64,000 nucleotides of DNA from Gammaproteobacteria bacterium. GTDB lineage: Bacteria > Pseudomonadota > Gammaproteobacteria > Poriferisulfidales > GCA-002705445. Every line of letters starts with the position of its first letter. Position 1 is the stretch's first letter. Under the pieces are notes generated by a model. That model ran no database searches and had not been told where the DNA came from. It was given only the letters and a program-made list of their open reading frames with translations. Shown here in pieces: positions 1 through 26,133 of the stretch. Made by a program: the position numbers and the translations under genes. Location of the stretch: the NCBI GenBank assembly GCA_045561235.1, contig JBJKYB010000001.1, forward strand, positions 10,566-74,565, read 5' to 3'.

Positions 1-865
1 TAATAATCTGAGTGTGTGTTCCAACATAAATTCTCAAAGTCCCTCTTTCCAGAAATAAAGCCGAATCTGTATTTGGTCTTATAAGCATATAAGTAGTTTT
101 TTCAATTAATTGATTAGTTAACAAACTTCCTTTTCTTGGATCACTTTTATTATTTTTTAAAGATATTGCAATTCTTGAAGATGAGGTAATTAAAGTATTC
201 AATTTTTGACCTACTGACTCTACTTCTCTTATATCTAATTGAGTTTGTTGATCATCTACAAACACCTTGTCAAAACTCATATTTTTACTTGCTGTTCCAG
301 TAATTACTTTTCCTATCCCCTCAATAGAAAACACTCTATCAACCCACAAAGAGGGAGGATTTATATTTGATTCAGACTTGTTAAAAAATTCATAAATAAT
401 TTTTTGTACTGATTTTTTATCACTATTTATTGAACTAAACTCAACCAACGAGTAATTAATCTCTTTGAAGTCAATTAATTTATTTATCAATTCATTTTTG
501 CCAAACACGATATCTTTTTTATCTGTTTTAGTCAGGAAAAAGAGTAGATTATTAATTCCTAGATTTATAAGTGATAAAAAATGCTCTTCTGATTGTTGAG
601 ACCAACCTTGGGTTGAGTCAACACAAAACAAAACTCCATCAACATTGGAGAAACCACTAATTGTATTTTTAAAATAATCTGTGTGACCCGGCACATCAAC
701 AATTGAAAATCTATTTTTTTCATAATCAAAGTATGTATAGCCAAGGCTAATGGTTAGGCCTCTTTGTTTTTCCTCTTTCAAGCGGTCAGTTTCTTGTCCT
801 GTTAAGAAATTAACTAATGTGGACTTGCCATGATCAACATGGCCAGCTGTCGCTAATACGGTCAT
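1..865 (-). CDS. selB: Selenocysteine-specific translation elongation factor (N-terminal part; runs off the window edge)
   Basis: Manual translation from ATG at 865: MTVLATAGHVDHGKSTLVNFLTGQETDRLKEEKQRGLTISLGY...IVDVPGH...; ATGA overlap with selA stop. Confidence 0.93.
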   Translation of the reverse strand, partial: MTVLATAGHVDHGKSTLVNFLTGQETDRLKEEKQRGLTISLGYTYFDYEKNRFSIVDVPGHTDYFKNTISGFSNVDGVLFCVDSTQGWSQQSEEHFLSLINLGINNLLFFLTKTDKKDIVFGKNELINKLIDFKEINYSLVEFSSINSDKKSVQKIIYEFFNKSESNINPPSLWVDRVFSIEGIGKVITGTASKNMSFDKVFVDDQQTQLDIREVESVGQKLNTLITSSSRIAISLKNNKSDPRKGSLLTNQLIEKTTYMLIRPNTDSALFLERGTLRIYVGTHTQII

Positions 866-2157
866 AATGAATTTAAAAATTTAGCAATTTCATCATCTTG
901 ACTTTCGAACACACTTCTCAAATCAATATTTATTTTTTCATTAACCACTCTTGGAATAATTGGATATTCATTGCTAATTAGTTTCATCAAAACACTATCT
1001 GATTTATCGACATCTAGAACCATTACAGGAGAATCTAGAGTTATGTTCGGCAGCGTTCCACCCCCAATCAGGCTTTCACCATTAATAATTTTGTATTTTA
1101 TATTGCTTTTTTCAGTAATTTTTTCAAATCTACTTTCTAGCTCCGAATAAGTCTTTTTTAAAAGGTTCCAAAATGGAATATCCTCTTCATCTTTTTGAAT
1201 GTATAATTCTGTAGTTTTTTGAAGTTCATATAAAATTATATCTGAGCATCTGTAAGTTCTGAAGATGCTGAAGTTTTTTATTGAATTTATCAATTCGTTT
1301 TTTCCTGCAATAATTCCAGATTGCACTGAGCCAAATAATTTATCTCCAGAGAACATCACAATATCAACGCCATCTTTTATGGATTGTTGAACTCTCGGCT
1401 CATGTTCAAATATTGATAAACTGTGTTTTGATAGAAAAGAATTTTCAACTACTAAGCCACTACCCAGATCATGGATTAGTAATGTATCATATTTATTTTT
1501 TAAATCAGCAAGTTCAGCAATTCCAACCTCTTCAGTAAAGCCACTAATTGAAAAATTGCTTCTATGAACTTTTAACACAACAGAGTTAGGATATTCTCTT
1601 AAGGCACCTTCATAATCACTTAAACGGGTTTTATTTGTTGTACCAACCTCAATTAAATTCATGCCAGTTTCAGATATTATATCTGGAAGCCTGTAAGAAC
1701 CTCCAATTTCAATGATTTCACCTCTTGACACTATGACTGTATCTTTACTATGTTTTTTTGCTAGGCATAGTAAAGACAGGTATAGAGAGGAGGCGTTGTT
1801 GTTTACGAAAGCTACATTTTCAACACCTAATAAAACCTTCATAGACTCTGTTAAATAATCATTGCGATTACCTCTTGAAGCAGTTGTTAAGTCGTATTCT
1901 ATATTTGTATACATTCCTGAAAAAGACATATTTACTGGAGATCTACCTAAATTTGTATGCAGCACAGTACCAGTTGCATTTATAATTTCTCTTTGTTTTT
2001 TTAAACTTAGTTTGTTGATTAACAACTTGAACTCTTTTTTTGCATCTTCAGCATTTTTAATTGAAGAGAGAATATTTTTTGCGAATTCAATCTTTATATC
2101 TCGAGGAAGATTCGAGTTTGTTGATTCAACCAAGCTATTTACTGAAATATTTCCCAT
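862..2157 (-). CDS. selA: L-seryl-tRNA(Sec) selenium transferase
   Basis: INATGTVLHTNLGRS, VNNNA, SRGEIIEIGGSYRLPDI, EVGTTNKT, HDLGSG, FSGDKLFG (PLP Lys) motifs; adjacent to selB. Confidence 0.95.
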   Translation of the reverse strand: MGNISVNSLVESTNSNLPRDIKIEFAKNILSSIKNAEDAKKEFKLLINKLSLKKQREIINATGTVLHTNLGRSPVNMSFSGMYTNIEYDLTTASRGNRNDYLTESMKVLLGVENVAFVNNNASSLYLSLLCLAKKHSKDTVIVSRGEIIEIGGSYRLPDIISETGMNLIEVGTTNKTRLSDYEGALREYPNSVVLKVHRSNFSISGFTEEVGIAELADLKNKYDTLLIHDLGSGLVVENSFLSKHSLSIFEHEPRVQQSIKDGVDIVMFSGDKLFGSVQSGIIAGKNELINSIKNFSIFRTYRCSDIILYELQKTTELYIQKDEEDIPFWNLLKKTYSELESRFEKITEKSNIKYKIINGESLIGGGTLPNITLDSPVMVLDVDKSDSVLMKLISNEYPIIPRVVNEKINIDLRSVFESQDDEIAKFLNSL

Positions 2158-3284
2158 TACTTAGCAAGCTCTTCAAAAACCTTTGCTAGACGCCCAGTAC
2201 AGGTTTCATCAACTATTGGAGGTAGTTTTTCAGCAATTGCAGAAACGAGTTTTTCAATTTCTGTTTTAGTAGGAGTGTTTTTTTCTTGAAGTATTAACGG
2301 TGTCCCGTCATCTGCAATATCATTTGTGTCTTCACTGATAGGAATTTTCCCCAGCATTGGAAGAGCGAACTGTTCTGCTAGTGCATCTCCTCCACCTTGG
2401 CCAAATATATTAAATTTATCACCAGTATTTGTCTCAAAGTATGACATGTTTTCAATTACACCTAAAAGCGGTATAAAACTTCTTTTTGCCATATCAGCAA
2501 CTCTAGTTGCAACTTTTTGTGCCATGAGTTGAGGGGTTGTAACAACGATAAGTTCAGCTTGTGGAAGTAATCTACTTAATGCCATTTGAATATCACCCGT
2601 ACCTGGTGGAAGATCAATTATTAAGTAATCAAGATCTCCCCACTCTACATTTGTAAGAAATTGTTCCAATGCCTTGCTCAACATTAATCCACGCCACATG
2701 AGAGCAGTATCTTCGTCACTTGTAATGAGTCCGGTTGAAATTACTTTTAAGTTGTCATAGACAAACGGAACCATTAGTTTATCTTCGTTTGCTTCAATTC
2801 TTCCTTTAATTCCTAGAAGTCGAGGAATAGAAAATCCCCAAATATCAGCATCAAGAAGTCCTGTTTTAAATCCTTTTTTTGATAATCCAAGGGCAATATT
2901 TGTTGATAAAGTAGACTTTCCAACACCGCCTTTACCACTACCTATTGCAATTACTCTTGTTCTTGGATCAATTTTTGTTGGTTGGGCGTTTTCTCTTGCT
3001 TTTTTTCTCGCTTTTTCCATAACTGCAGTTCTATCTTTTTGATCCATAGCAACAACATTAATTTGAACGGTTTCGACATTCTCAAGTAATGTTAGTTTTC
3101 TATTAATTTCTTTCTCAATTTGACTTCTCATTGGACAATCTGCAATTGTTAGAGCAAGGTCAATTTTGACAACAGATCCTTCATGATCTACTTTTTTCAC
3201 CATACCAAGCTCAACAATATTAGCTCCTAACTCAGGATCAAACACTGTAGATAGGTGTTTTAGCAATATATCACTTTGTGTCAT
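2157..3284 (-). CDS. mrp: Mrp/ApbC/NBP35 Fe-S cluster carrier ATPase with N-terminal DUF59 domain
   Basis: DPELGANIVELGMV (DUF59), GSGKGGVGKST, DADIWG, WRG, DLPPGTGD, ENMS. Confidence 0.93.
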   Translation of the reverse strand: MTQSDILLKHLSTVFDPELGANIVELGMVKKVDHEGSVVKIDLALTIADCPMRSQIEKEINRKLTLLENVETVQINVVAMDQKDRTAVMEKARKKARENAQPTKIDPRTRVIAIGSGKGGVGKSTLSTNIALGLSKKGFKTGLLDADIWGFSIPRLLGIKGRIEANEDKLMVPFVYDNLKVISTGLITSDEDTALMWRGLMLSKALEQFLTNVEWGDLDYLIIDLPPGTGDIQMALSRLLPQAELIVVTTPQLMAQKVATRVADMAKRSFIPLLGVIENMSYFETNTGDKFNIFGQGGGDALAEQFALPMLGKIPISEDTNDIADDGTPLILQEKNTPTKTEIEKLVSAIAEKLPPIVDETCTGRLAKVFEELAK

Positions 3285-3361
3285 ACGAATATTCTAAGTA
3301 GATTTGTGAAAGATGTAATTATTAATTTATTGAATATTCGTTTTCTTGTTATAATAGGACT

Positions 3362-3709
3362 ATGGATATACAAATCAAATCATCAAGAGCAGTGCTCGCA
3401 ACAGACAGTGCTGTAAAAAAACTTATAGAACTTAAATCAGAGGAAACAGCAGAAGAAAGCTTCCTCAGAATGGGAGTAAAACCAGGAGGTTGCTCTGGCT
3501 ATTCATATGAGATGTTCTTTGATACAGATAAATTTGATGGTGACGTAATAGAAGAGTACGACGGGGTCAACATTGTTGTAGATGGTCAAAGCCTAGAACA
3601 TATCAAAGGTGCAACTTTAGATTACAAAGAAGGCTTAATGGAAACAGGTTTCTCCATTGAAAATCCAAATGTATCCAGAACATGCGGTTGCGGAAATAGC
3701 TTTAGTTAA
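3362..3709 (+). CDS. erpA: A-type Fe-S cluster carrier (ErpA/IscA, HesB family)
   Basis: GGCSG and C-terminal CGCGNSF motifs. Confidence 0.9.
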   Translation: MDIQIKSSRAVLATDSAVKKLIELKSEETAEESFLRMGVKPGGCSGYSYEMFFDTDKFDGDVIEEYDGVNIVVDGQSLEHIKGATLDYKEGLMETGFSIENPNVSRTCGCGNSFS

Positions 3710-4331
3710 ATTTATAACCGACTGAGTGTACTGTTTTAATCCAATTATTTCTTTGGTCACCGAGCTTCGCTCTCAGTCTTCTTACATGAACATCGACTGT
3801 TCTAGCTCCACCGAAATAATCATAACCCCAAACTTTTTCTAGAAGCTGCTCTCTAGACCAAACATTTTCTTGGTTTAAAACAAAAAACTTTAACAATTCA
3901 TATTCCATGAATGTTAGATCAAGCAGTACATCACCAGCTTTTGCTTCATATGTTTTTAAATTAATATTAAGGTCTTTGAACTCAAGTATTTCTGAATCAC
4001 TGTGACCAACTAGTGCATGAACCCTTGCGTCGACCTCTGGTAATTTACTAGAACTTGAAATCAATTCAATTTGAGGGTTTTGAATTAGATCAACTGTTTG
4101 TTCAAAATCTACTTCATTAACAATAATTAAAGTAGGAAAAGGTTTAGTGGAGGATTCTAAATCTGACAAATTTTTCTTAGTTTCACCGTATTTCGATAGT
4201 GATGTTATAACTAAATGTATTTGATTTGGGGTTTGTATATTCTTAATGACGAGTTTTTTAACACCAGAAGACTTTAATAAATCTTCAAAGTTTTTATGTT
4301 CTTTATCTATGTTTATATATGTATCTATCAT
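3702..4331 (-). CDS. glnR: OmpR-family regulator with atypical receiver, GlnR-like
   Basis: LTFMEYELLKF...VWGYDYFGGARTVDVHVRRLRAKLG resembles actinobacterial GlnR winged helix; divergent from glnII; start moved to ATG 4331 to avoid overlap with glnII. Confidence 0.75.
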   Translation of the reverse strand: MIDTYINIDKEHKNFEDLLKSSGVKKLVIKNIQTPNQIHLVITSLSKYGETKKNLSDLESSTKPFPTLIIVNEVDFEQTVDLIQNPQIELISSSSKLPEVDARVHALVGHSDSEILEFKDLNINLKTYEAKAGDVLLDLTFMEYELLKFFVLNQENVWSREQLLEKVWGYDYFGGARTVDVHVRRLRAKLGDQRNNWIKTVHSVGYKFN

Positions 4332-4334
4332 CTC

Positions 4335-4361
4335 GAAACAATTATTTAATAATTCTGTAAC
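4335..4361 (+). promoter_or_regulatory. Candidate GlnR box upstream of glnII
   Basis: GAAAC-n6-TTAAT-n6-GTAAC, pentamers at 11-bp spacing, just upstream of TACATT -10 (4383-4388). Confidence 0.45.
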
Positions 4362-4394
4362 AACATTGCTTGAAATATATATTACATTATTTTC

Positions 4395-5423
4395 ATGAAG
4401 ATAAAAGCAGAATATATATGGATTGACGGTCAAACTCCAACCGCAAAATTAAGGAGTAAAACAAAGATAATAGATCAAGAAACAGAGCCACCTATTTGGG
4501 GTTTTGATGGTTCCAGCACCCAACAAGCATCAGGGGACCAATCTGACTGCGTATTAAAGCCAGTTGCACAATTTCCTGATCCAATTAGAGGTGGCGATAA
4601 CATTTTGGTGATGTGTGAAGTAATGAATGTTGACATGACTCCACATACATCAAACACTAGAGCTGCATTAGTAGAGTCAGCTGAAAACTTTGGAGAATTT
4701 GAGCCTTGGTTTGGAATGGAACAAGAGTACACATTTTACGAACAGTCTTACGACTCACTTAAATATGGACAACCTTTAGGGTTCCCTCCATCAGGATACC
4801 CAGCTCCACAAGGAGGTTACTACTGTGGTGTGGGTGCTGACGAAGTTTATGGAAGAGAAATCTCTGAAGCTCATGCAACAGCTTGCATAGAAGCTGGATT
4901 AGGCATTTCAGGAACAAATGCTGAAGTTATGCCTGGTCAGTGGGAGTTCCAAATTGGACCTGTAAGCGCACCAGACATTGGTGACCAAATTTGGGTCGCA
5001 AGATGGTTGCTATACAGAATAGCTGAAGATTGGAATATTTCTGCAACACTAGATCCAAAACCTGTAAAGGGTGATTGGAACGGTGCAGGTATGCATACCA
5101 ACTTCTCGACTAAACAGATGAGAGAGGACGGCGGATACGACGCAATAGTTGCAGGATGTGAAGCTCTTGGTAAAAATGCTGATTTGCATGTAAAAAATTA
5201 TGGTGCAAACATTGAAGACAGACTAACAGGTGACCATGAAACTCAAAGTTTTGATACTTTTTCTTATGGAGTTAGCGACAGAGGAGCGTCAATTAGAATT
5301 CCATGGCAGGTTGAAGTTGATAAAAAAGGTTATCTAGAAGATAGAAGACCAAATGCTAATGGAGATCCTTACGTCATTGCAATGTTAATGATTGATACAG
5401 TTTGTTCAGCAGCTTCTAGTTAG
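4395..5423 (+). CDS. glnII: Glutamine synthetase type II
   Basis: AEYIWIDG, WGFDGSST, GMEQEY, NAEVMPGQWEFQIGP, WNGAGMHTNFST, YLEDRRP; 342 aa. Confidence 0.95.
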   Translation: MKIKAEYIWIDGQTPTAKLRSKTKIIDQETEPPIWGFDGSSTQQASGDQSDCVLKPVAQFPDPIRGGDNILVMCEVMNVDMTPHTSNTRAALVESAENFGEFEPWFGMEQEYTFYEQSYDSLKYGQPLGFPPSGYPAPQGGYYCGVGADEVYGREISEAHATACIEAGLGISGTNAEVMPGQWEFQIGPVSAPDIGDQIWVARWLLYRIAEDWNISATLDPKPVKGDWNGAGMHTNFSTKQMREDGGYDAIVAGCEALGKNADLHVKNYGANIEDRLTGDHETQSFDTFSYGVSDRGASIRIPWQVEVDKKGYLEDRRPNANGDPYVIAMLMIDTVCSAASS

Positions 5424-5432
5424 AAGCTGTTG
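5407..5432. terminator. Hairpin across the overlapping stops of two convergent genes
   Basis: CAGCAGCTTCT-AGTT-AGAAGCTGTTG, 11-bp stem with one G-U pair; no U-tract. Confidence 0.35.
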
Positions 5433-6021
5433 CAACAATTTCAGAAATCTTTTCTATTAGTTGATCAAGATTCTCATTAAATGAATCTAAAGCAGCTGCT
5501 CTTCTTTCTCCAGTATCAGAAGATTCAAGACCAGCTTTAAGTTCAACAGTATCTTCGTAGATCAAACTTACTAAAGTTTTTATTTCTTCATGACTTGTAA
5601 CCAAATTGGCATAAGTATTTGGAGGTCCAGGATTTGACACTGTATCAACAAACTCATTCCATTTGGCAATAAAGACATCAAATTCATCTTTTGCTTCTTG
5701 ATAGGTTACTGTTTTGTTATCCCAGTTATCATTTGCTTGCAAAACTTCTTCACCAAGGCTAATTGCTACTATCCTTTCTCCATTAATTTCTTCAAGATAG
5801 GAAATGTAATCATCCGGCAATGTTGTAGTGGTTGTAGTTGTAGTGGTGTCTTCTATTGTCTCTTCGGATACAGTTTGAACAGTGGTGTCTTCTACAACAA
5901 TGTTCAAGTCATTATTTGTTGCAACTCTATTGATAAACGTGTAAGTTGTAGCAATCATACCAATTAGTACTAATGGTAAAACTATTCTGCCTGGCTTTGG
6001 GTCCGGATTAAAGGTTTCCAT
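5416..6021 (-). CDS. Membrane-anchored hypothetical protein with Thr-rich linker and acidic helical domain
   Basis: N-terminal hydrophobic helix, poly-T run, 201 aa ORF. Confidence 0.75.
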   Translation of the reverse strand: METFNPDPKPGRIVLPLVLIGMIATTYTFINRVATNNDLNIVVEDTTVQTVSEETIEDTTTTTTTTTLPDDYISYLEEINGERIVAISLGEEVLQANDNWDNKTVTYQEAKDEFDVFIAKWNEFVDTVSNPGPPNTYANLVTSHEEIKTLVSLIYEDTVELKAGLESSDTGERRAAALDSFNENLDQLIEKISEIVATASN

Positions 6022-6023
6022 AG

Positions 6024-6266
6024 CTATATTGTATCAAACTTATTTAATATATCGTTATTAATCATATTCCAGTCCGAGGACTCTTCTTTTGTAATTGTTA
6101 AGAATCCAGGACCAGTAAAAATCGAGAGAATTCCATCTACCTCGATTAAATCTTTTGCAACCCCAATAATATTTTCACTTTCTTTTTTTATATATGTAGC
6201 GATTTCATAGTCATGTTCAATTAAAACTTTTTTAGCGTTTGGGTTTGGTGTGTCTATTAAATTCAT
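6024..6266 (-). CDS. NifU N-terminal (scaffold) domain protein
   Basis: TPNPNAKK...FLTITK...W pattern typical of Nfu_N. Confidence 0.8.
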   Translation of the reverse strand: MNLIDTPNPNAKKVLIEHDYEIATYIKKESENIIGVAKDLIEVDGILSIFTGPGFLTITKEESSDWNMINNDILNKFDTI

Positions 6267-6308
6267 ATTTCAATAATATTTTAATATAAAAAGAACTAAT
6301 ATGTCTGT

Positions 6309-6851
6309 ATGCAATACGAACTTAGTAATTTAACAAAAAATAATATCAGTTTGAGTCGTAATCAAATTTTTCCAATTATAGGTTTGTATTTCTTTGTTTT
6401 GGGTACATCCTTGCTTGGCTTCTCGGTATATTTATTTCTTGAGTCGGCTGGGATTGTAGAACAAACTCTTATAAATTGGAATGGCCAAGGATTATTTTGG
6501 TCATTTATAACATTTTTTGCTTCTCTTTTTATTTTGTTTATACCTGTAGAGTTTTTTGATAAATACTTTATTGAAAACAGATCATTTAGAAACCTTCTTA
6601 CCAATGTTGTTTCCGTGATATTTATATCCCTTTTTTTTCTAATATTATTTCAAGTTTTACTAAGGAATCAAAATATTTTTGTAAATGAATATTTAGTGAT
6701 CGCAAGAGCTGTATCGTTTTCCGGTTTTATAGCAATTCCTTTATTACTATTTTTATTTCATAATTTTGGAAGAAATATCAATTTAATCAATAACAACACG
6801 TACGGATTTACATTAGTTTTCTGGATACTAACTACTCAGATATTTTTATAA
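6309..6851 (+). CDS. Hypothetical integral membrane protein
   Basis: About 5 hydrophobic helices; TAATAT 6 nt before ATG. Confidence 0.75.
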   Translation: MQYELSNLTKNNISLSRNQIFPIIGLYFFVLGTSLLGFSVYLFLESAGIVEQTLINWNGQGLFWSFITFFASLFILFIPVEFFDKYFIENRSFRNLLTNVVSVIFISLFFLILFQVLLRNQNIFVNEYLVIARAVSFSGFIAIPLLLFLFHNFGRNINLINNNTYGFTLVFWILTTQIFL

Positions 6852-8492
6852 TTACATTTCATCAACAGGCAGCATTCCAAGGCAAAACATTGTGTTGTGA
6901 CTTGTAGTCAAAAAGAGATTAGCAATATAGAGTTTTGAAGCAATGTGGCTTGAATCGGTAATATTTGAAAGTTTTTCATTTTCGTAAAATTGATTAAATA
7001 AATTAGAGATTTCATAAAGATAATTTGCAAGATGATGTGGTTCATTTAGTAAAGCTGATTGTTCAAGATAATAAGAAAATAAAAATAATTTTGAAAGCAA
7101 ATGTTTATCTGTTTTGTTTAAAATTAATTCTTCAATTCCTTTGTTATGGTTGTTAATAGTATCTATTAGTTTTTTTGCTCTAACCTGTGAATACTGAACA
7201 TATATACCTGTTTTCCCATTAACATTTGTAAACTTTTCCAAATCAAACTTATAGTCAGTTTTTCTATTTGTGATCAAGTCACTAAATGTTAGAACAGAAT
7301 TAGTTAATTGTGCAATGGTAGAATCATTTAACTCATCATTAATATTTTTTATATAACTACAGGTTTCATTAAATAAATCACTAAGTGGTTTTGTTCCGCC
7401 ATCTCTTGTTTTAAAAGGGTTTCCTTCGTTATCATTTAGCGTACCGTAGGCAATATGTTCATGATATAAATCATTAAATTTGAAAAACTTTATTGAATCA
7501 AATAATTGTTTAAAGTGTAGAGATTGACGATTATCAACAATGTAATATGCCTTATCATATGGAATATTCTTCTGTCTATATAAAATCGTTGCTAAATCTG
7601 TAGTTATGTAGAGGTATGATCCGTCTGACTTAGTAATTAAAACCTTAGGATTGACATCTTCAGCGCTGATTAGTGCGCCACCGTCCTCGACTATCTTCTT
7701 ATTTTTAATTAAGGTATCAATCATTTCAGGTATTAAATTATTTACATCACTTTCCCCAAGCCAGTAATCAAATTTGTGATCTAATGTTTTAAAATTTTCT
7801 TCTAGACTTTTTATAGATATACTTTTTATTATTTTCCAGACAGCAAGCATATCTTTATCGTTATTATTCAGAAGTTTATTAACTTCTTGAGCTCTTTTCT
7901 TGAAGTCACTGTTGTGCTTATACTCTTCACTAGCTTTTGGATAAATTATTTCTAGATGATTAGAGCTTACATTTTCAAGAGCCATATTTTCTTTTTCTAA
8001 ATATGAAATGATTTGAGCTACCGGCATTCCCCAATCTCCCAAGTGAATATCACTTACTACTTTGTTGTTTATAAAAGAATGGATATTATAAAGGCTTCTG
8101 CCAATGTTCAGCGTACGCATATGGCCAACGTGCAATGGTTTACCAATGTTGGGTCCACCATAGTCAAAAATAATCCTATATTTTTTATCATTAATAAAAT
8201 CATTTTTTGTATTGGTTATTTTATTTACAAGAAAATTGTGATTTAAAATTAAGTTAATAAATCCAATATTATTTTTATCTACAGTTTCAAAAATTTGTGA
8301 TTCTTCTATTTTTTTTACAATTTTATCTTTAAGTTCTGTAAAAAAATCTTCTTTGTTGTATTTGACTAAATTATTAATTTGTAGGTCGTATTCATCTAGT
8401 TTTGACACACTTAAACGCACATCTTCATCGAGATCAAATTTTTTAAATTCCTTGTTTAAGGAATCAGTTAAATTATTAAAAATGTTATTCAT
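6852..8492 (-). CDS. argS: Arginine--tRNA ligase
   Basis: FDYGGPNIGKPLHVGHMR (HIGH), HLGDWG, KSDGSYLYITTDLA, FKTRDG, YVQYSQVR. Confidence 0.96.
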   Translation of the reverse strand: MNNIFNNLTDSLNKEFKKFDLDEDVRLSVSKLDEYDLQINNLVKYNKEDFFTELKDKIVKKIEESQIFETVDKNNIGFINLILNHNFLVNKITNTKNDFINDKKYRIIFDYGGPNIGKPLHVGHMRTLNIGRSLYNIHSFINNKVVSDIHLGDWGMPVAQIISYLEKENMALENVSSNHLEIIYPKASEEYKHNSDFKKRAQEVNKLLNNNDKDMLAVWKIIKSISIKSLEENFKTLDHKFDYWLGESDVNNLIPEMIDTLIKNKKIVEDGGALISAEDVNPKVLITKSDGSYLYITTDLATILYRQKNIPYDKAYYIVDNRQSLHFKQLFDSIKFFKFNDLYHEHIAYGTLNDNEGNPFKTRDGGTKPLSDLFNETCSYIKNINDELNDSTIAQLTNSVLTFSDLITNRKTDYKFDLEKFTNVNGKTGIYVQYSQVRAKKLIDTINNHNKGIEELILNKTDKHLLSKLFLFSYYLEQSALLNEPHHLANYLYEISNLFNQFYENEKLSNITDSSHIASKLYIANLFLTTSHNTMFCLGMLPVDEM

Positions 8493-8522
8493 TTAGCAAA
8501 TTTCTATTCTTTATTTTAATGC

Positions 8523-9257
8523 TTATCTACGAAAGAACACTTGCCTCAAAAAGTAAAACACAAATAAAATATTGTCTATTAAATATCTCTTGTAGAGTCT
8601 TTTTGGGTCTTGTATCAATCTTAACAACCACTCAAACCCCATATTTGCAGCCCACTCAGGTGCCTTCTTTTTTGTCCCTGCTACCCACTCAAAAACTCCG
8701 CCAATCCCTACAAAGTTTGAATTATTTTTAGTAATTTTGATTATTTTATCAATAAATATTTCTTGCTTTGGAAAACCAAGTGATACCCAGATAATATCTG
8801 CATTGATATTTTTTATTTCATCTTTATATTTTTCAACAAGAAGATCAGGTTCCATTATTTCTGGACACATGTAGCCTCTTATTTGTATTTCAGGATAAAG
8901 CTTTTCAAGATTGTTAATCATCAATTTAGTTATATATTCATTACTACCAAAAAAATAATGGCTACTGTTTTTACTTAACCCATCTTCAATGGTTTTTAAG
9001 AAAACATTATATCCATCTACCCTCAGAAATTTTTGTTTAGAGATTATTGAAAGAGCTTTTGCGACAGGAAAACCATCAGGAGTTTTAATTGTAAAACTAT
9101 TAATTGTTTCTTTTATATATGAGTTCCGTACACTTCGAACCAGTGTGTTTGCATTACAAATAGCAACTCGTTGGTTAGTTGAGGAGTTTAGAATATTTGA
9201 GACCTCGTTAATATTAGTCTCACTTATATTTGTTTGAAGGACCTTAGTTGTTTTCAT
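8523..9257 (-). CDS. WecB/TagA/CpsF family glycosyltransferase
   Basis: PDGFP, RVDG, VSLGFPKQE, GIGGVF, APEW...EWLLRLIQDPKRL. Confidence 0.92.
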   Translation of the reverse strand: MKTTKVLQTNISETNINEVSNILNSSTNQRVAICNANTLVRSVRNSYIKETINSFTIKTPDGFPVAKALSIISKQKFLRVDGYNVFLKTIEDGLSKNSSHYFFGSNEYITKLMINNLEKLYPEIQIRGYMCPEIMEPDLLVEKYKDEIKNINADIIWVSLGFPKQEIFIDKIIKITKNNSNFVGIGGVFEWVAGTKKKAPEWAANMGFEWLLRLIQDPKRLYKRYLIDNILFVFYFLRQVFFRR

Positions 9258-9305
9258 TATTGAAACTATTATATAAGTATAAAAATTAGATTATGAAAAA
9301 ATCTT

Positions 9306-9379
9306 GCGCCTGTGGCTCAACTGGATAGAGCATCTGACTTCGGATCAGAGGGTTGGGGGTTCGAGTCCCTCCAGGCGTG
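9306..9379 (+). tRNA. tRNA-Arg(UCG)
   Basis: Cloverleaf: acceptor GCGCCTG/CAGGCGT, anticodon arm TCTGA-CTTCGGA-TCAGA, T arm GGGGG-TTCGAGT-CCCTC; CCA not encoded. Confidence 0.93.
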
Positions 9380-10490
9380 CAAAACTCAACATAGATTTAA
9401 CCCTATTTTCGATTGAAAAGTCTACATAATCAACTTCTTGGATGGGATATAAATTAACACTATTTAATATACTTCTTATAAACGACTCTTTTGAATTTTC
9501 ATTAAAGAATAAAATATTTGAAGCAAATGGCAATTCTCTATGAGATTCAAAGTCTACAGCTATAATTTTTAAACCTGCTGCTAGATATTCAAAATATTTT
9601 AAAGGGGAAGTAAATTTTACTGAGTGACTGTTTTTACTTGAATTTATCAAAAGACCTATTTCGGATTCTTGAAGCATGTTTATAGTATTTAAATGGCTCA
9701 ACCGTCCAAGAAAATCAATATTTTTAGGAAATTTATTATTTCTATTTTTCTTTAATTCTTCAATATATTTTTCAGGACCACCAACAATCTTCAAGTTATA
9801 TTTATCTAGTCTCTGATCTTCAAAGCAAGAGATTATAAATTCAATGTTTCTTGTTGTTCCAAATCTTAAAAGTTCACCAACAAAAATAATTTGATTATTT
9901 TTCTTTCTAACATTATCTTTAAATAATTCATTTTTATATCCATTGTTTAAAACAATGTAATTAAAGTCAAACTTGATAAGTTTTTGATAGTTTTTGAATA
10001 AACTGTCATTTAAAAATATAATCTTAGATGTTTTTTTACTTAGACAAACTTTTAAAATAATATTTCTTATCTTTGAGGGTTGATGACACTCGAAAATTAC
10101 ATGCTTGTTTTGTTTAGATAAAAAATAAAATATCCAATCTGATCTTGTAAAAAAGTAATCATTTTTTGAATTATTAATTAAATTTTTTACAGTTTTCTTT
10201 GACCAAAGGAAATGGCTCAAATGATAGGTCAATTTGTTAAAAAATTTAACTTTTCCAAATGGTAAATTGTGTTTTAGTTTAACAATTTCAAAATCTTGCT
10301 CAATTCCATAGAAATTTTGTATTTGAACAAGACTGTCGGAACTAAAATCATCTCTATCTGGGAAAATTAATTTTACCTTAACTCCTTGTTTGACAATTTC
10401 AGCAATATTACTGATAGTCTGTAAAGAGTTTGCAGTGTTTGCTGGAAACGTTTGATATGTAATGTATGTTAAATTTCTCAACTTATTCAC
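9345..10490 (-). CDS. GT4 family glycosyltransferase
   Basis: ANSLQT N-terminus, FECH, FTSPLKYFEYLAAG motif; GTG start; 3' end overlaps tRNA-Arg antisense. Confidence 0.85.
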   Translation of the reverse strand: MNKLRNLTYITYQTFPANTANSLQTISNIAEIVKQGVKVKLIFPDRDDFSSDSLVQIQNFYGIEQDFEIVKLKHNLPFGKVKFFNKLTYHLSHFLWSKKTVKNLINNSKNDYFFTRSDWIFYFLSKQNKHVIFECHQPSKIRNIILKVCLSKKTSKIIFLNDSLFKNYQKLIKFDFNYIVLNNGYKNELFKDNVRKKNNQIIFVGELLRFGTTRNIEFIISCFEDQRLDKYNLKIVGGPEKYIEELKKNRNNKFPKNIDFLGRLSHLNTINMLQESEIGLLINSSKNSHSVKFTSPLKYFEYLAAGLKIIAVDFESHRELPFASNILFFNENSKESFIRSILNSVNLYPIQEVDYVDFSIENRVKSMLSFARLEGLEPPTL

Positions 10491-15675: not shown

Positions 15676-15753
15676 GGGGGCGTGGTGAAGTCTGGAGTTC
15701 ACGCCTGCCTGTCACGCAGGAGGTCGCGGGTTCGAATCCCGTCGTCCCCGCCA
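15676..15753 (+). tRNA. tRNA-Asp(GUC)
   Basis: Acceptor GGGGGCG/CGTCCCC, anticodon arm CCTGC-CTGTCAC-GCAGG, T arm GCGGG-TTCGAAT-CCCGT, encoded CCA. Confidence 0.95.
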
Positions 15754-15756
15754 ACT

Positions 15757-15829
15757 GGCCAGATAGCTCAGTCGGTAGAGCACTTGTCTGAAAAACAAGG
15801 GGTCGGCAGTTCGATTCTGCCTCTGGCCA
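15757..15829 (+). tRNA. tRNA-Phe(GAA)
   Basis: Acceptor GGCCAGA/TCTGGCC, anticodon arm CTTGT-CTGAAAA-ACAAG, T arm GGCAG-TTCGATT-CTGCC. Confidence 0.95.
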
Positions 15830-15855
15830 CTGGGTTTTTTCCTAGTGAACACAGA

Positions 15856-15876
15856 ACTGTGCCATAAACTGTGGCA
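15856..15876 (+). repeat. Tandem 9-bp direct repeat, candidate integrase arm-type site
   Basis: ACTGTGCCA-TAA-ACTGTGGCA. Confidence 0.6.
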
Positions 15877-15954
15877 GATAGTTTGAAGATTTAGACTTAT
15901 AAACAACAAATTTTTTATAATTGTCAATCGTAGTACTATTGAAAAAAGAAAAAT

Positions 15955-16875
15955 ATGATGAAGAACAAGATGAAGAACAATTCTAATATTAGTTTTAAAA
16001 ACAAGCTTGTGGCTGGAGCTCTTGTCTCTGGTGTTGCAATTACTGCGTTTGTCTTAATTAGTGATTTAGATATTTCTTCAGATGATATTAATGAAATTTT
16101 TGATGAGGCATTAGAAGAGAATACTGAGCTTGTAACTAAATTGTGTAAAGAAAATCTAAATGAAACTACAGAAGCTCAAGAATTTCTTGACATTCTTGGT
16201 GATTCGGGCTTTAACATTGGTGGTGATTCGGGCTTTAACATTGGTGATCCGGGCTTTACAGAAGACAATAATCAGCTCGCTACAGTCATAAAGAGGTGTG
16301 ATGAAATTTTGAATTCTACAACTATTACTCTTACTTCAACAACCATTCCCGTTGAGACAACAATTCCAGTTGAGACAACTACAACTACGACTATTCCGAG
16401 CACAGAGTGTGATGAGTCCTTATCTAAAGTTGTAGCTGAAGACCCTAGCCAGGTTAGGGTATCTATTATTCAAGATGCCATTTATGCAGAGTATTACGAT
16501 GATGGGGAATCTTATATTGATAAAGGTATCTTGATTTGTTGGGAACCATTTTTAGTTGACGGGTTAGAATCTGAAGACTACTGGGTAGTATTTGGTTGGA
16601 CATTAGATGATTATATCTCAGCTGACGGAGGTAGTTATGACACCGGAGTAATTTATTCAGTGTCATCAAGATATGGACCTTATGGAGATGAAGAACCCGC
16701 CAGAACATATATGTTTTTTGATTATGAGTATTTTTATAATTTTGATGAAGCAAAACCATTCATTGTGAATGAAAAATTGCAGATTTACTTCCAAATAGAA
16801 GCACTTAATGAGAGCTCTCCGAATTATTGGTCTGAAAAAACTCAGCCTGTTTCAGTCATAATAGATGTTCCTTAA
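15955..16875 (+). CDS. Membrane-anchored acidic surface protein with GDSGFNIG repeats and Thr-rich linker (cassette cargo)
   Basis: N-terminal TM (LVAGALVSGVAITAFVLI), GDSGFNIG x2 plus DPGF, TTIPVE x2, aromatic-rich C-terminal domain. Confidence 0.8.
   Translation: MMKNKMKNNSNISFKNKLVAGALVSGVAITAFVLISDLDISSDDINEIFDEALEENTELVTKLCKENLNETTEAQEFLDILGDSGFNIGGDSGFNIGDPGFTEDNNQLATVIKRCDEILNSTTITLTSTTIPVETTIPVETTTTTTIPSTECDESLSKVVAEDPSQVRVSIIQDAIYAEYYDDGESYIDKGILICWEPFLVDGLESEDYWVVFGWTLDDYISADGGSYDTGVIYSVSSRYGPYGDEEPARTYMFFDYEYFYNFDEAKPFIVNEKLQIYFQIEALNESSPNYWSEKTQPVSVIIDVP
16198..16258 (+). repeat. In-frame 24-bp tandem repeat
   Basis: GGTGATTCGGGCTTTAACATTGGT x2 followed by partial GATCCGGGCTTTA. 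Confidence 0.9.
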
Positions 16876-16917
16876 ATACTAAATAATTACAACAAGAAGT
16901 TATCTAGGAAGTTATTT

Positions 16918-16937
16918 ACTGTGCCAAAACTGTGCCA
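16918..16937 (+). repeat. Tandem 9-bp direct repeat, candidate integrase arm-type site
   Basis: ACTGTGCCA-AA-ACTGTGCCA, same motif and orientation as 15856-15876. Confidence 0.6.
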
Positions 16938-17055
16938 CTTGGGTTTCTTTATTGTGATTTATTTACTGCTCGTTAGATGATACAAGCGCAAGGTAATGAG
17001 CGAAAACTAACAACGAATAAGTTACAATGAGATAAGGTCAAGTGGTCTGCCTTTA

Positions 17056-17100
17056 TCTGAAAAACAAGGGGTCGGCAGTTCGATTCTGCCTCTGGCCACT
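17056..17100 (+). repeat. att-like copy of tRNA-Phe 3' half (exact)
   Basis: TCTGAAAAACAAGGGGTCGGCAGTTCGATTCTGCCTCTGGCCACT identical to 15787-15831. Confidence 0.97.
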
Positions 17101-17153
17101 AGATAATTATAAAAAACAATATGAATATACAGCTTATTTTGAAGATATAAACA

Positions 17154-17981
17154 ATGTGCAAAAAAACTGTCTTAAATAGATTGACTGGAAGAGATTTTTA
17201 TTTAAGTTATGCCGCATTTTCAATAGTCGCTACAAATCGATTAAAACTTTTTAAATTAGGAAAATTTGTTGACATAAACGAAGTCAGTAAATCAGATGAT
17301 ATGTATGGTGTTTGGAAAAATGTTAACAATTTGAATAAGTTTTTAGGGTTTCGACTTACAAATATAGATTTAATACAGTTTATATCTACGTTGCTATCTC
17401 AAAAGGTTGTTTATACAGAAATAGGCGTTTCTGTATTAAAAAATTTTTACTTAATGGCAAATTTTTTAAACAAGTCTGAATTATATGCATTTGATATTAA
17501 TGATATATATAAGCCTATGGAGGAGAAATTTAAATTTGTGAATAAATCTGGGATTAAAAAAAACTATGTTTTGGACAACAATGAAATAATTTATTTTAAA
17601 GGGGATGTTTTTTCTTCAGATGACTTGACAGCTTTTTCTGATGAATTTAAAGGAAAGACAAATTTAATTTATTCAGATGCTGATCACACAGAAAAAGGTT
17701 TGCTGTTTGAATATGAATATTTTTATAAATTAGTTTTGGATGAAGAGTTTATTTTATACTTCGATGATGTAAACTCAAAAACTATGCCTGGGTTTTTAAA
17801 AATTCTCGAAAAAATTAGAACAGAAAGACCCTCCAGTAGTATTAATGGTTATACATTCTGGATAAATGGCTGGATGGGAAAGAATAAAAATCAGCATCGA
17901 AATGGAATAATAAGTACTGTGAATATTCACAATGCATTGAAAAAAAATAAAATAAAGTTAAAAAACTTCAAGATACTTTAG
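17154..17981 (+). CDS. Putative class I SAM-dependent methyltransferase
   Basis: YTEIGVS, YAFDIN, IYSDADH, LYFDD motifs. Confidence 0.6.
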   Translation: MCKKTVLNRLTGRDFYLSYAAFSIVATNRLKLFKLGKFVDINEVSKSDDMYGVWKNVNNLNKFLGFRLTNIDLIQFISTLLSQKVVYTEIGVSVLKNFYLMANFLNKSELYAFDINDIYKPMEEKFKFVNKSGIKKNYVLDNNEIIYFKGDVFSSDDLTAFSDEFKGKTNLIYSDADHTEKGLLFEYEYFYKLVLDEEFILYFDDVNSKTMPGFLKILEKIRTERPSSSINGYTFWINGWMGKNKNQHRNGIISTVNIHNALKKNKIKLKNFKIL

Positions 17982-17993
17982 CGATTATTAATT

Positions 17994-18839
17994 TTAGACT
18001 TTTATACCAACTCTTCCTGTAAAATCTGATTGAGCAAAAAATGGCCTTGTAGGTGTATCGTGCCTTAAAAAATAGTCATCAACTGCTTTTCTTGCTCCAT
18101 CCCAATACCCATAATCATCGATTAGAAGTACTCCACCAATTTCAAGTTTAGGATACAAAACTTCTAATTCAACGATAGTTGAATCGTACCAATCAGTATC
18201 AAGCCTTAAAACAGAAATTTTTTCAGGTAAATTTGATTTAATTTTTAAAGTATCTTCTACTTTTCCTTTTATAAAAGTTATATTTTCGAGAGTTAAGCCT
18301 GCTTTTTTAAAATTTTCTCTTACCTCATCTAGGGAGGCATAGCACCAAGAATTGAAATTTAGTTCTTGGTGTTTATTAAAGACATTTTTTGAGGTATCAC
18401 CAATAAATACTGATTTATCTACACCATCATCAGGTTCACTCATTCCTGTAAAGGTATCATAAATGTAAAAATTTCTATTTTTAAAGTACTTCTTACATGC
18501 AAGTGATGCTGCTATAGCATTACCACCCCTCCATGTTCCACACTCTACAAATGAACCTCGAATATTATTAAACTCTACATGCTTGACCGCTAGGACAGTG
18601 TCTGTCAATCTAGCGGGAGATACCATTGTTAAATCATTTTTTAAAACATACTTTATTGCATTTACATCTTCTTCATTTAATTCTGGTCGCTTTTCTAGAA
18701 ATTTATTTTTTTTTATTCTTTCAACTCTTTCTAGATTCAAATATTCATAGCTAAGTTGTTTGTTATCATATTTAGTTTTTAAGATTTCGTAATTAAATGA
18801 TTCAAAAATTTTTTTAATTATTTTTTTAAAAAACTGCAT
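17994..18839 (-). CDS. TylF/MycF/NovP-family O-methyltransferase
   Basis: GSFVECGTWRGG, YDTFTGM, LRLDTDWYDST, LIDDYGYWDGARKAVD. Confidence 0.92.
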   Translation of the reverse strand: MQFFKKIIKKIFESFNYEILKTKYDNKQLSYEYLNLERVERIKKNKFLEKRPELNEEDVNAIKYVLKNDLTMVSPARLTDTVLAVKHVEFNNIRGSFVECGTWRGGNAIAASLACKKYFKNRNFYIYDTFTGMSEPDDGVDKSVFIGDTSKNVFNKHQELNFNSWCYASLDEVRENFKKAGLTLENITFIKGKVEDTLKIKSNLPEKISVLRLDTDWYDSTIVELEVLYPKLEIGGVLLIDDYGYWDGARKAVDDYFLRHDTPTRPFFAQSDFTGRVGIKV

Positions 18840-18989
18840 TACATAAATTAATTTAGCAGGTTTGAATCATAGCTTGATTCAATTGGAATAATTGTTATTT
18901 ATCAAATCAAAACTTGTAAAGAAGACTAATTTAAATTATTTGCATGGCTGTAGATTTTGATTGAGATTTAGTATAAAGTTTTTTATGAA

Positions 18990-24600: not shown

Positions 24601-24679
24601 AAAGAATGTGTTTATAATCAACTTAGGTCAAATGGTTAGCCCACATCTACTAAAACAAGGGATCGGCAGTTCGATTCTG
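24601..24679 (+). repeat. Degenerate att/tRNA-Phe 3' copy with upstream conserved module
   Basis: 24652-24679 matches tRNA-Phe 15792-15819 at 27/28; upstream 24601-24650 resembles 17012-17060. Confidence 0.88.
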
Positions 24680-24692
24680 TTAATGACTTCAA

Positions 24693-26012: not shown

Positions 26013-26042
26013 TTCAAGCCAACTGTGCATCAAAAACTTTGT

Positions 26043-26120
26043 AACGAATCATATATAATTAGTTAAGTTTAAATAATTAACCTATTTTTGGAAAACAAGA
26101 AATCGGCAATTAGATTATGC
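26043..26120 (+). repeat. More degenerate att/tRNA-Phe 3' copy with upstream module
   Basis: 26092-26120 AAAACAAGAAATCGGCAATTAGATTATGC matches tRNA-Phe 15792-15820 at 23/29; TATAAT 38 bp upstream as in the exact copy. Confidence 0.75.
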
Positions 26121-26133
26121 TTATATCAACAAA

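Follow-up and report, generated by a model that had tools for sequence, protein, structure and literature searches.

A tRNA-Phe cassette of Candidatus Actinomarina as a likely integrase-less derivative of integrative elements

The 64-kb stretch of DNA analysed here (henceforth referred to as the window) contains a tRNA-Phe gene next to which stands a 1.27-kb cassette (positions 15787-17055) with a single cargo gene, an open reading frame (ORF) of 306 amino acids termed ORF306. We consider it likely that this cassette, which is not autonomous and has no integrase of its own, derives from integrative elements of Candidatus Actinomarina whose target is the anticodon loop of tRNA-Phe; that a helper integrase could still move it is plausible. 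The cassette type is already known for this taxon, as the tRNA-repeat cassettes of the flexible genomic island fGI1, and is also akin to cis-mobilizable elements (CIMEs) and to the remnants in tycheposon islands; what is added here is the cis-acting anatomy with its cassette-specific matched arm repeats, an integrase-bearing sibling element and an occupied/empty pair of alleles. Actinomarina is among the most abundant and most streamlined marine bacteria, and the published account of its envelope island notes the tRNA repeats and names no recombinase. The cassettes now gain an anatomy (a likely place of crossover, two arms and specific repeat pairs) and a candidate enzyme family with a sibling that still carries the enzyme; the mechanism is now directly testable, and there is a sequence signature for cassette boundaries in metagenomes.

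The cassette at tRNA-Phe and its matched arm repeats

The cassette is bounded by an exact repeat of the 3' half of tRNA-Phe. An earlier reading of this DNA, made from its letters alone (the sequence-only reading), had described a 45-bp flanking repeat beginning at the anticodon loop, and a script check bore out its coordinates: 15787-15831 is identical to 17056-17100 over 45 bp, the first copy starting within the anticodon loop of the tRNA-Phe gene (15757-15830) and the second corresponding to the final 45 nt of tRNA-Phe plus one base. With one mismatch allowed the repeat measures 48 nt, with a period of 1269; a 1224-bp body lies between the exact copies, and the unit 15787-17055 comprises one repeat copy plus the body. 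The motif ACTGTGSCA has four sites in the 64 kb, all of them on the + strand and within the cassette body (starting at 15856, 15868, 16918 and 16929), compared with 0.29 expected by chance (0 of 100 shuffles reached four); they form the two doublets in the same orientation that had been described before, and across the 1.23-Mb assembly the doublet pattern occurs at just these two places. A second motif, TTTGAAGA..ATAAACAA, has two sites, one at 15882-15906 and a shortened one at 17138-17154 (0.01 expected; 0 of 100 shuffles reached two), in line with the earlier proposal that the next segment begins with a homologous left end. No recombinase was found in the cassette body, whose single long ORF (15955-16875) has no Pfam or PHROG match, and here too the sequence-only reading held; across the assembly, PF00589 matched two Xer-sized genes only, on another contig. 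When the window was scanned with a profile of the right arm (the cassette end ahead of the second repeat copy) plus repeat, four sites were returned: the tRNA itself, 16996-17099 (E 8e-33) and decayed sites at 24611-24679 and 26041-26122. Because these other window copies are decayed (65-67% identity to the repeat), the cassette next to tRNA-Phe is the youngest of the series, as had been claimed. ARAGORN called an 80-nt tRNA-Phe-like gene at 17020-17099, made up of the last 36 nt of the right arm and the repeat, and made the same call in 9 of 49 related loci; the excised site would therefore hold a diverged look-alike of the whole tRNA.

These 49 related loci are metagenome loci that encode a relative of ORF306. 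The repeat, searched as 35 nt with up to 6 mismatches, is present in 29 of them, often flanking the gene on both sides, and 17 hold ACTGTGSCA; the 20 loci without a detected repeat include L022 and L029, where the contig begins inside the repeat, and distant homologues of 41-46% identity. The cassettes form arrays of up to five repeat copies, spaced 1.1-1.8 kb apart, with unrelated cargo between the copies; the repeat stands at 41, 1176, 2826, 3989 and 5816 in locus L051, at 167, 1541, 2399 and 2833 in L052 and at 2, 1211 and 2858 in L025, and Actinomarina genomes likewise have 2-3 copies within 4 kb at many loci. Cassettes with different cargo have in common about 150 nt ahead of each repeat and the 50-75 nt that follow it. 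Ahead of every repeat copy other than the tRNA we found the same layout, in which two direct repeats of 8-11 nt are followed by a GCTCA box, then by inverted GCTC/GAGC boxes and then by an A/T-rich stretch containing AATAAGTTAnAAT; in an alignment of 26 distinct right arms, which extends over about 150 nt, the position of the doublet is fixed and each arm closes with a sequence resembling the 5' half of a tRNA, the final bases of which mimic the anticodon stem on its 5' strand. Each repeat is followed by one of a few left-end types (GGGTTTTTTCC.. or ATAAACATAGGC..TTCACAAACAAAC), then by a direct-repeat pair and often by TATAAACA, and the left-end layout of the window cassette recurs in other cassettes with other doublet sequences.

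The sequence of the doublet is specific to the cassette, and left and right agree within a cassette, the doublets found being of the types ACTGTGCCA, CTATACGCA, TCGTCCC, CCGAAC, ACTCCGACA, AACCGCACAC, ACTGTCACA and ACTGGGACA. This agreement was counted with one representative per arm type, as an exact word of at least 8 nt with at least three G or C, by comparing the first 75 nt of the cassette with its own right arm (-180 to -95). A cassette's own left and right arms matched in 12 of 25 cassette types, one of which may be a chance match, compared with 70 of 1032 mismatched pairs. The co-variation of the doublets between the two ends supports the layout that the sequence-only reading had proposed, that of a lambda-type attP with P and P' arms: an identity block covers the 3' part of the target, and short arm repeats distinct from the core stand on both sides of it. 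The features of the cassette and of its surroundings are collected in Table 1. Promoter-like sites such as the one listed ahead of the cargo gene are no more numerous in the region than in shuffled sequence, and the tRNA-Asp/tRNA-Phe pair also stands ahead of cassette arrays in locus L037 and in genomes G081 and G091.

Table 1. Features of the tRNA-Phe cassette and its surroundings, in window coordinates
Feature	Position	Strand	Basis or remark
tRNA-Asp(GTC), upstream neighbour of the target tRNA	15676..15753	+	ARAGORN
tRNA-Phe(GAA), integration target, 3' part from the repeat (attL)	15757..15830	+	ARAGORN
attL identity block, 45 bp, anticodon loop to tRNA 3' end	15787..15831	+	sequence identity
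Left end (P' arm when excised): GGGTTTTTTCC, doublet ACTGTGCCA-n3-ACTGTGGCA (15856-15876), TTTGAAGAT..TATAAACAA (15882-15906)	15832..15906	+	
Promoter-like TAGACT-18-TATAAT upstream of the cargo ORF	15892..15921	+	consensus match only, 10/12 positions
Cargo ORF, 306 aa (ORF306)	15955..16875	+	homologues point to a start at 15970
Putative relic of the integrase-gene 3' end (caacaagaagttatctag), 18 nt	16890..16907	+	by-eye comparison with L040 3805-3823 and the 53-nt copy L040 4831-4883
Right end (P arm) with doublet ACTGTGCCA-n2-ACTGTGCCA (16918-16937)	16908..17055	+	alignment of 26 right arms, ARAGORN, profile
Inverted GCTCGTT/AATGAGC boxes in the right end	16968-16974 and 16995-17001	+	
A/T-rich stretch with AATAAGTTACAAT in the right end; tRNA-like 5' half closing in the 5' strand of the anticodon-stem mimic	within 16908..17055	+	
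attR identity block, 45 bp	17056..17100	+	sequence identity
Left-arm relic of the next, older segment (TTTGAAGATATAAACAA), without doublet	17138..17154	+	
Decayed right arm and repeat, older cassette	24611..24691	+	65% identity; profile E 6.5e-14
Decayed right arm and repeat, older cassette	26041..26131	+	67% identity; profile E 5.4e-06

An integrase-bearing sibling and relics of its gene

Among 92 ORFs of the longer loci that were scanned, one encodes a tyrosine recombinase, the 381-aa protein P0030 on locus L040 (PF00589 4.6e-17; PHROG integrase 2e-55), which recurs on L044 at 99.7% identity. L040 carries, in this order, a primase/helicase gene (AAA_25), an excisionase-like 78-aa ORF, a repressor-like 70-aa ORF, ORF255, the integrase gene and a homologue of ORF306; beyond the latter come a right arm, whose doublet is ACTATACGCA..ATATACGCA, then the repeat and after it the next cassette. 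No relaxase or conjugation genes were seen on this contig, which is incomplete and cut at its left end. An AP2 domain stands at the N-terminus in 22 of 24 members of the P0030 family, the match of P0030 itself (E 2e-4) lying below the Pfam cut-off, and the AlphaFold2 (AF2) model of P0030, with a mean predicted local distance difference test score (pLDDT) of 88.2, consists of three strands and a helix followed by a helical core-binding domain and a catalytic domain. The best structural match of the model is the Tn1549 integrase (E 2.5e-15), and full-length lambda integrase could be aligned over 372 columns; the model thus predicts a tyrosine integrase of the heterobivalent type. In marine metagenomes the family comprises 75 clusters at E 1e-20 or better, with identities to P0030 of 29-100%, and one of these clusters bears an NCBI name from an Acidimicrobiaceae bacterium.

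The ORF306 homologue of L040 starts 45 nt past the integrase stop codon, and the last 53 nt of the integrase gene (L040:3771-3823) are duplicated at 4831-4883, just after the ORF306 homologue, at 89% identity, which suggests that the cargo gene entered the parent element via an event that copied the 3' end of the integrase gene. In L036 and L037, mini-cassettes of the same subtype, homology to L040 begins within the last 17 nt of the integrase gene and the downstream copy is retained. Relics of the gene form a series that runs from the full integrase of L040 through a 145-aa fragment in the single-cell genome G081 and longer relics in L035 and L039 to the 18 nt of the window. Because of these 3' relics and the G081 intermediate, we regard the mini-cassettes as deletion derivatives of integrase-bearing elements. 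The intermediate is the second cassette after tRNA-Phe in G081 (L168 = G081:C1:80000-98000, reverse strand, 7438-9750) and holds a 495-aa ORF with a weak carbohydrate-binding match next to the C-terminal integrase fragment, which is 76% identical to P0030; it is a hybrid, since its left doublet CTGCACACA is unlike its right doublet ACCAACC.

Concerning the origin of the mobilising enzyme, the sequence-only reading had named a phage or an island integrase. The island half gains support from the sibling, which combines the same cargo gene with a three-domain, AP2-like integrase, and the helper looks like an island-type element rather than a phage; the phage half fared badly, as nothing close was found in three scans of viral contigs. 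Nothing pointed to a catalogued phage as the helper: the relatives that P0030 alone or the 24-member family alignment found among viral contigs were at most 34% identical, and the exact 36-nt repeat had no match in these contigs. The same reading had looked to an integrase-bearing element that shares the arm motif. The sibling provides the integrase, but its arms are of the CTATACGCA type and not of the ACTGTGCCA type found in the window.

Forms without cargo were also observed. In an 'empty' cassette (L118:3515-3677, also in L160) 163 nt lie between two repeats, and a left end with one ACTGGGACA doublet joins a right arm, with no cargo between them. Separately, in run X7 a Logan contig of depth 8.4, with 54 nt on its shorter side, connects window position 15873 directly to 16918 and skips 1044 nt; this would be a cargo-less form of the window cassette, at a likeness of 90% at which joints from other organisms or repeats are possible as well.

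Host, turnover and rival explanations

The assembly that holds the window (G000) consists of three contigs, and the window contig, C1, is a contig of Candidatus Actinomarina that was binned together with an unrelated genome. We assign it so because of its duplicate tRNA genes, the matches of its tRNA-Phe, its 83-94% identity to an Actinomarina genome and the opposite behaviour of the other two contigs. C1 has second copies of tRNA-Phe, -Asp, -Lys and -Val, genes that C2 or C3 also carry. The exact 29-nt 3' end of its tRNA-Phe was found at 75 loci in representative genomes, 72 of which are labelled Candidatus Actinomarina, Actinomarinales, OCS155, Acidimicrobi- or Actinomycetota, and tRNA-Phe in genomes of the bin's own genus is just 77-82% identical to it. 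The Actinomarina single-cell genome G064 is collinear with window positions 1-10264 at 83% identity, and a further 20 kb of C1 shares about 7.8 kb with G064 at 94% identity and found no counterpart in two genomes of the bin's genus; for C2 and C3 the reverse holds, as they match the bin's genus and not Actinomarina. A genus-mate of the bin carries the title Gammaproteobacteria, and a search of the bin's own family for the integrase found it in none of 17 genomes. Such wrong-organism binning matters to users of that genome. The stretch is near-identical in 19 runs from 9 studies. The surroundings of the cassette are rich in genes for glycosyltransferases, sugar-nucleotide enzymes and methyltransferases, and the tRNA-bounded flexible island in which it lies is fGI1, the cell-envelope island of Actinomarinales. 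For this island the available passages of López-Pérez et al. (2020, PMC7771536) name tRNAs, Phe included, as hot spots, describe tRNA-direct-repeat cassettes and report mobile elements as absent save three insertion sequences; in the same passages the word 'integrase' does not occur, and no recombinase, arm structure or parent element is given. The words integrase, cassette and direct repeat are all absent from a 2026 preprint on complete Actinomarina genomes.

Gain or loss of one whole cassette is apparent from a comparison of L025 with the Actinomarina genome G091. L025 1198-3797 is 97.0% identical to G091 over 2601 nt; in G091 the genuine tRNA-Phe directly abuts the shared cassette, and in L025 an ORF306 cassette and one repeat stand ahead of it. 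The two form an occupied/empty pair for a sister of the window cassette (87-89% identical to it), the difference being exactly one body plus one repeat, so that the empty allele whose absence from all relatives the sequence-only reading had held to count against it exists for the sister cassette. With this allele and the integrase-bearing sibling, neither of the two outcomes that would have refuted that reading was found. The left arm of the window type is preceded by six different upstream sequences, comprising the genuine tRNA, three different right arms and two truncated tRNA remnants. In L064 the body recurs, over its first 374 nt, at 99.2% identity behind the right arm of another cassette, and a 95.5% identical copy in L047 has a different cassette next to it. 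G064, the closest Actinomarina genome, carries the repeat three times at this site (contig 1, about 456.8-466.3 kb), at intervals of about 2.7 and 2.9 kb. Ahead of two of these copies stand right arms whose doublets are of other types, CTGCCC and CGTCGTCCA, and since this genome is 94% identical in flanking core DNA, turnover at the tRNA-Phe site is fast. In 65 Actinomarinales genomes the right flank of the cassette in the window (17101-18950) has just two short matches, one of 90 and one of 263 nt, the region of ORF452 alone being matched. At L026 the right arm and TCTGAAAAA are joined to a strongly decayed repeat remainder and the left copy is pristine, a structure that we infer to be the one expected from insertion into an old repeat copy with strand exchange in the anticodon loop; a crossover in this loop fits the mimic of the 5' anticodon-stem strand that is kept in every right arm.

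In a separate setting (L031, L032 and L035), the same cassette adjoins a 5'-truncated tRNA-Phe remnant, with the right arm cut off in L031 and L032. Genes of housekeeping type flank it in L031 and L035: panB lies upstream in L035, while genes for TauE, an FGGY kinase and a GH1 glycosidase lie downstream in both, joined in L031 by glycine-cleavage genes; this may be a second chromosomal location.

These comparisons bear on the rival that survives best, which we nevertheless consider unlikely, namely that the cassette is an inert fossil. It would have been delivered once by an element that then lost its integrase, its contexts would have arisen via homologous recombination and exchange of island segments, and its arms would be intact because the insertion is young. 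The great rarity of integrases in Actinomarinales genomes suits this account, as do the hybrid cassettes with unlike left and right arms (L039, L081 and the second cassette of G081), the decay of older window repeats down to 65-67% identity and, in its available passages, the report of López-Pérez et al. (PMC7771536) of cassettes without mobile elements. Neutral decay would hardly keep the arm layout and the matched doublets in cassettes whose cargo and arm sequences have widely diverged, however, nor would a fossil be expected to yield an occupied/empty pair that differs by exactly one body and one repeat. The L026 cassette sits at a decayed repeat where homology extends only to the anticodon loop, a poor substrate for homologous recombination on that side, and the 75 clusters of the integrase family show that a diverse set of such enzymes exists in the same kind of metagenomes.

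Several observations weigh against our preferred reading of a derivative that a helper integrase could still move. Logan contigs from four runs of four studies all end at the repeat and leave both the circle junction and the empty-site junction of the window copy unspanned; in all four of these runs the per-contig depth of the cassette is 1.4-3.9 times that of its flanks, at most a hint that the cassette exists in further backgrounds, as the depths sum other organisms. No integrase was found beside arms of the ACTGTGCCA type, the sole integrase-bearing sibling (L040, L044) having arms of the other type. Among 65 Actinomarinales representative genomes there is no intact close relative of P0030, and two fragments occur; besides Xer-sized genes, one intact tyrosine recombinase gene was seen (G113), and two distant integrases stand at tRNA-Val and tRNA-Leu. 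Thirteen of the 25 cassette types have no matching doublets, mostly for want of recognisable arms and in a few cases as hybrids of two arm types; since the left and right arms are unlike each other in some of these 13, arms are subject to decay and recombination as well. Finally, much of the shuffling of contexts could be the work of homologous recombination between the shared ends of 45-95 nt, without an integrase.

Counted from the repeat, the doublets lie about 25-45 nt beyond it on one side and about 138 nt ahead of it on the other, in direct orientation on both sides of the core. In lambda-like attP sites, the same short repeat pair on each side of the core and in direct orientation marks the arm-type sites of the integrase, and excisionase sites are normally confined to one arm. 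We therefore infer from their arrangement that the cognate integrase probably uses the doublets as arm-type sites, through its AP2-like N-terminal domain. That they instead served another function of the parent element, as iterons of its primase/helicase, repressor operators or excisionase sites, and were kept as leftovers, strikes us as very improbable, even though the parent encodes a primase/helicase and repressor-like and excisionase-like proteins and a promoter-like site lies just downstream of the left doublet: one and the same doublet at fixed distances on the two sides of the core is the arrangement of arm-type sites, the doublets are retained where every element gene has been lost, and the integrase family has a predicted N-terminal DNA-binding domain that needs such sites.

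Movement of the cassettes by host machinery, either by the two Xer-type recombinases or by an integron-like mechanism acting on folded single strands, is barely credible, for although 62 of the 65 Actinomarinales genomes have tyrosine recombinases of Xer size and next to no others, and arrays of single-gene cassettes resemble integron arrays, the repeat, a 3' half of a tRNA with its crossover in the anticodon loop, is not dif-like, RNAalifold found no conserved structure beyond the T arm in the 26 right arms (compensatory change in 0 of 9 predicted pairs), no integron-type integrase adjoins the array, and an element-borne integrase exists, with relics of its gene inside cassettes. The inverted GCTC/GAGC boxes of the right arms resemble conserved sequence and not a covarying stem.

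Returning to the reading of the cassette as an integrase-less derivative, its mechanism can be sketched as follows. An autonomous element would give rise to the cassette through deletion of its integrase and replication genes; strand exchange would take place in the anticodon loop, with the anticodon-stem halves as core-type sites, and the AP2-like N-terminal domain of the cognate integrase would bind the doublets. Given a helper in the same cell whose integrase and excisionase match, the cassette would be excised as a 1269-bp circle and inserted anew; alternatively, the cassette might be carried along in tandem with a helper element. Mobilisation in trans is a plausible and, as judged from sequence comparison, the most likely way in which the cassettes spread.

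In ORF306 an N-terminal hydrophobic anchor is combined with GDSGFNIG repeats, with a TTIPVE linker that is rich in Thr and varies in length, and with a C-terminal domain that is conserved and rich in beta structure. In-frame tandem repeats lie at window positions 16196-16258 and 16330-16385 (GDSGFNIG-like and TTIPVE units), and their copy number varies among homologues. The protein collection contains 28 relatives, mostly on contigs of 1.1-1.5 kb, and records a Pfam domain for none of them; in representative genomes 40 pattern matches gave no confirmed ORF306, the AF2 model is poor (mean pLDDT 53.6), and a search of the ESM Atlas returned no usable match. Distant homologues (41-55% identity) at three loci without a detected repeat (L059, L065 and L069) were also observed: in L059 the gene follows those of an ABC ATPase and a MacB/FtsX-type permease, and ORFs in L065 and L069 match these in size and order. 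The neighbourhood in L059 is a possible hint to a function of ORF306 at the envelope.

Relation to known systems

The closest known relatives are the cassettes of fGI1 themselves. The window cassette lies in an envelope island, adjoins a tRNA gene and is bounded by a direct repeat of part of that tRNA, and it thus shares the organism group, the island and the tRNA hot spots, Phe among them, with the cassettes described in the available passages of PMC7771536; recombinase, arms and parent element, which those passages do not give, are described here. CIMEs, as far as the available part of PMC5704250 presents them, are alike in that they decay from an autonomous element, form tandem arrays at a tRNA 3' end and can be moved if a related integrase is supplied. 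Their origin lies in conjugative or mobilizable elements of Firmicutes and they span many kilobases, whereas we describe a 1.27-kb cassette with a single gene. The window cassette has one ORF without a recombinase signature and two exact repeats, and its derivation by decay or deletion from an autonomous element is traced by the relic at 16890-16907 and the graded series of relics; the parent, as seen in the partial locus L040, shows primase/helicase, excisionase-like, repressor-like and integrase genes and no conjugation or relaxase genes.

Tycheposons of Prochlorococcus, according to the available part of their description (10.1101/2020.12.28.424599), likewise have a streamlined marine host and use island tRNAs, of which partial repeats are left behind; their gene content comprises a tyrosine recombinase, an excisionase, a primase/helicase and cargo, and tandem elements split by partial tRNAs build up the island together with their remnants. 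The phylum and the tRNA differ, and the remnants in that description are degenerate fragments without clear boundaries, not bounded cassettes with two arms. In the system described here we likewise found tRNA-targeted integration with partial tRNA repeats, tandem elements and remnants. The hallmark genes of tycheposons, a tyrosine recombinase and a replication module, are absent from the cassette itself and present only in its sibling L040.

The attP sites of lambda and of mycobacteriophage L5 have a core between P and P' arms that bear short direct repeats for the N-terminal domain of the integrase; in such systems adjacent pairs of arm sites occur, the target can be a tRNA gene whose 3' part is duplicated, and the phage encodes its own integrase. 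In the cassettes, by contrast, what looks like the full site travels with one cargo gene and no integrase.

Integron cassettes, too, are mostly single-gene units that lack a recombinase, carry their own site and form arrays with the youngest unit nearest to the fixed site. Their site is a folded one of the attC type, used by an integron integrase, whereas here it is a tRNA 3' half with double-stranded arms of the lambda type; neither a conserved right-arm structure outside the T arm nor, in the window or the assembly, an integron integrase was found. A wider proposal, which we put forward tentatively and regard as rather doubtful, is that the tRNA-Phe end of the island is built by a system that resembles integrons and differs from them in mechanism: dozens of mostly single-gene cassettes, each with a complete lambda-type attP and an 'arm code' matched to one lineage within a diverse family of AP2-tyrosine integrases, would be moved in trans by rare helpers that carry integrase, excisionase and primase/helicase. 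If this is true, a streamlined marine bacterium that was reported to be without mobile elements would have its missing machinery for gene flux, and the cassettes would form a class of miniature non-autonomous integrative elements that are to integrative islands what miniature inverted-repeat transposable elements (MITEs) are to transposons.

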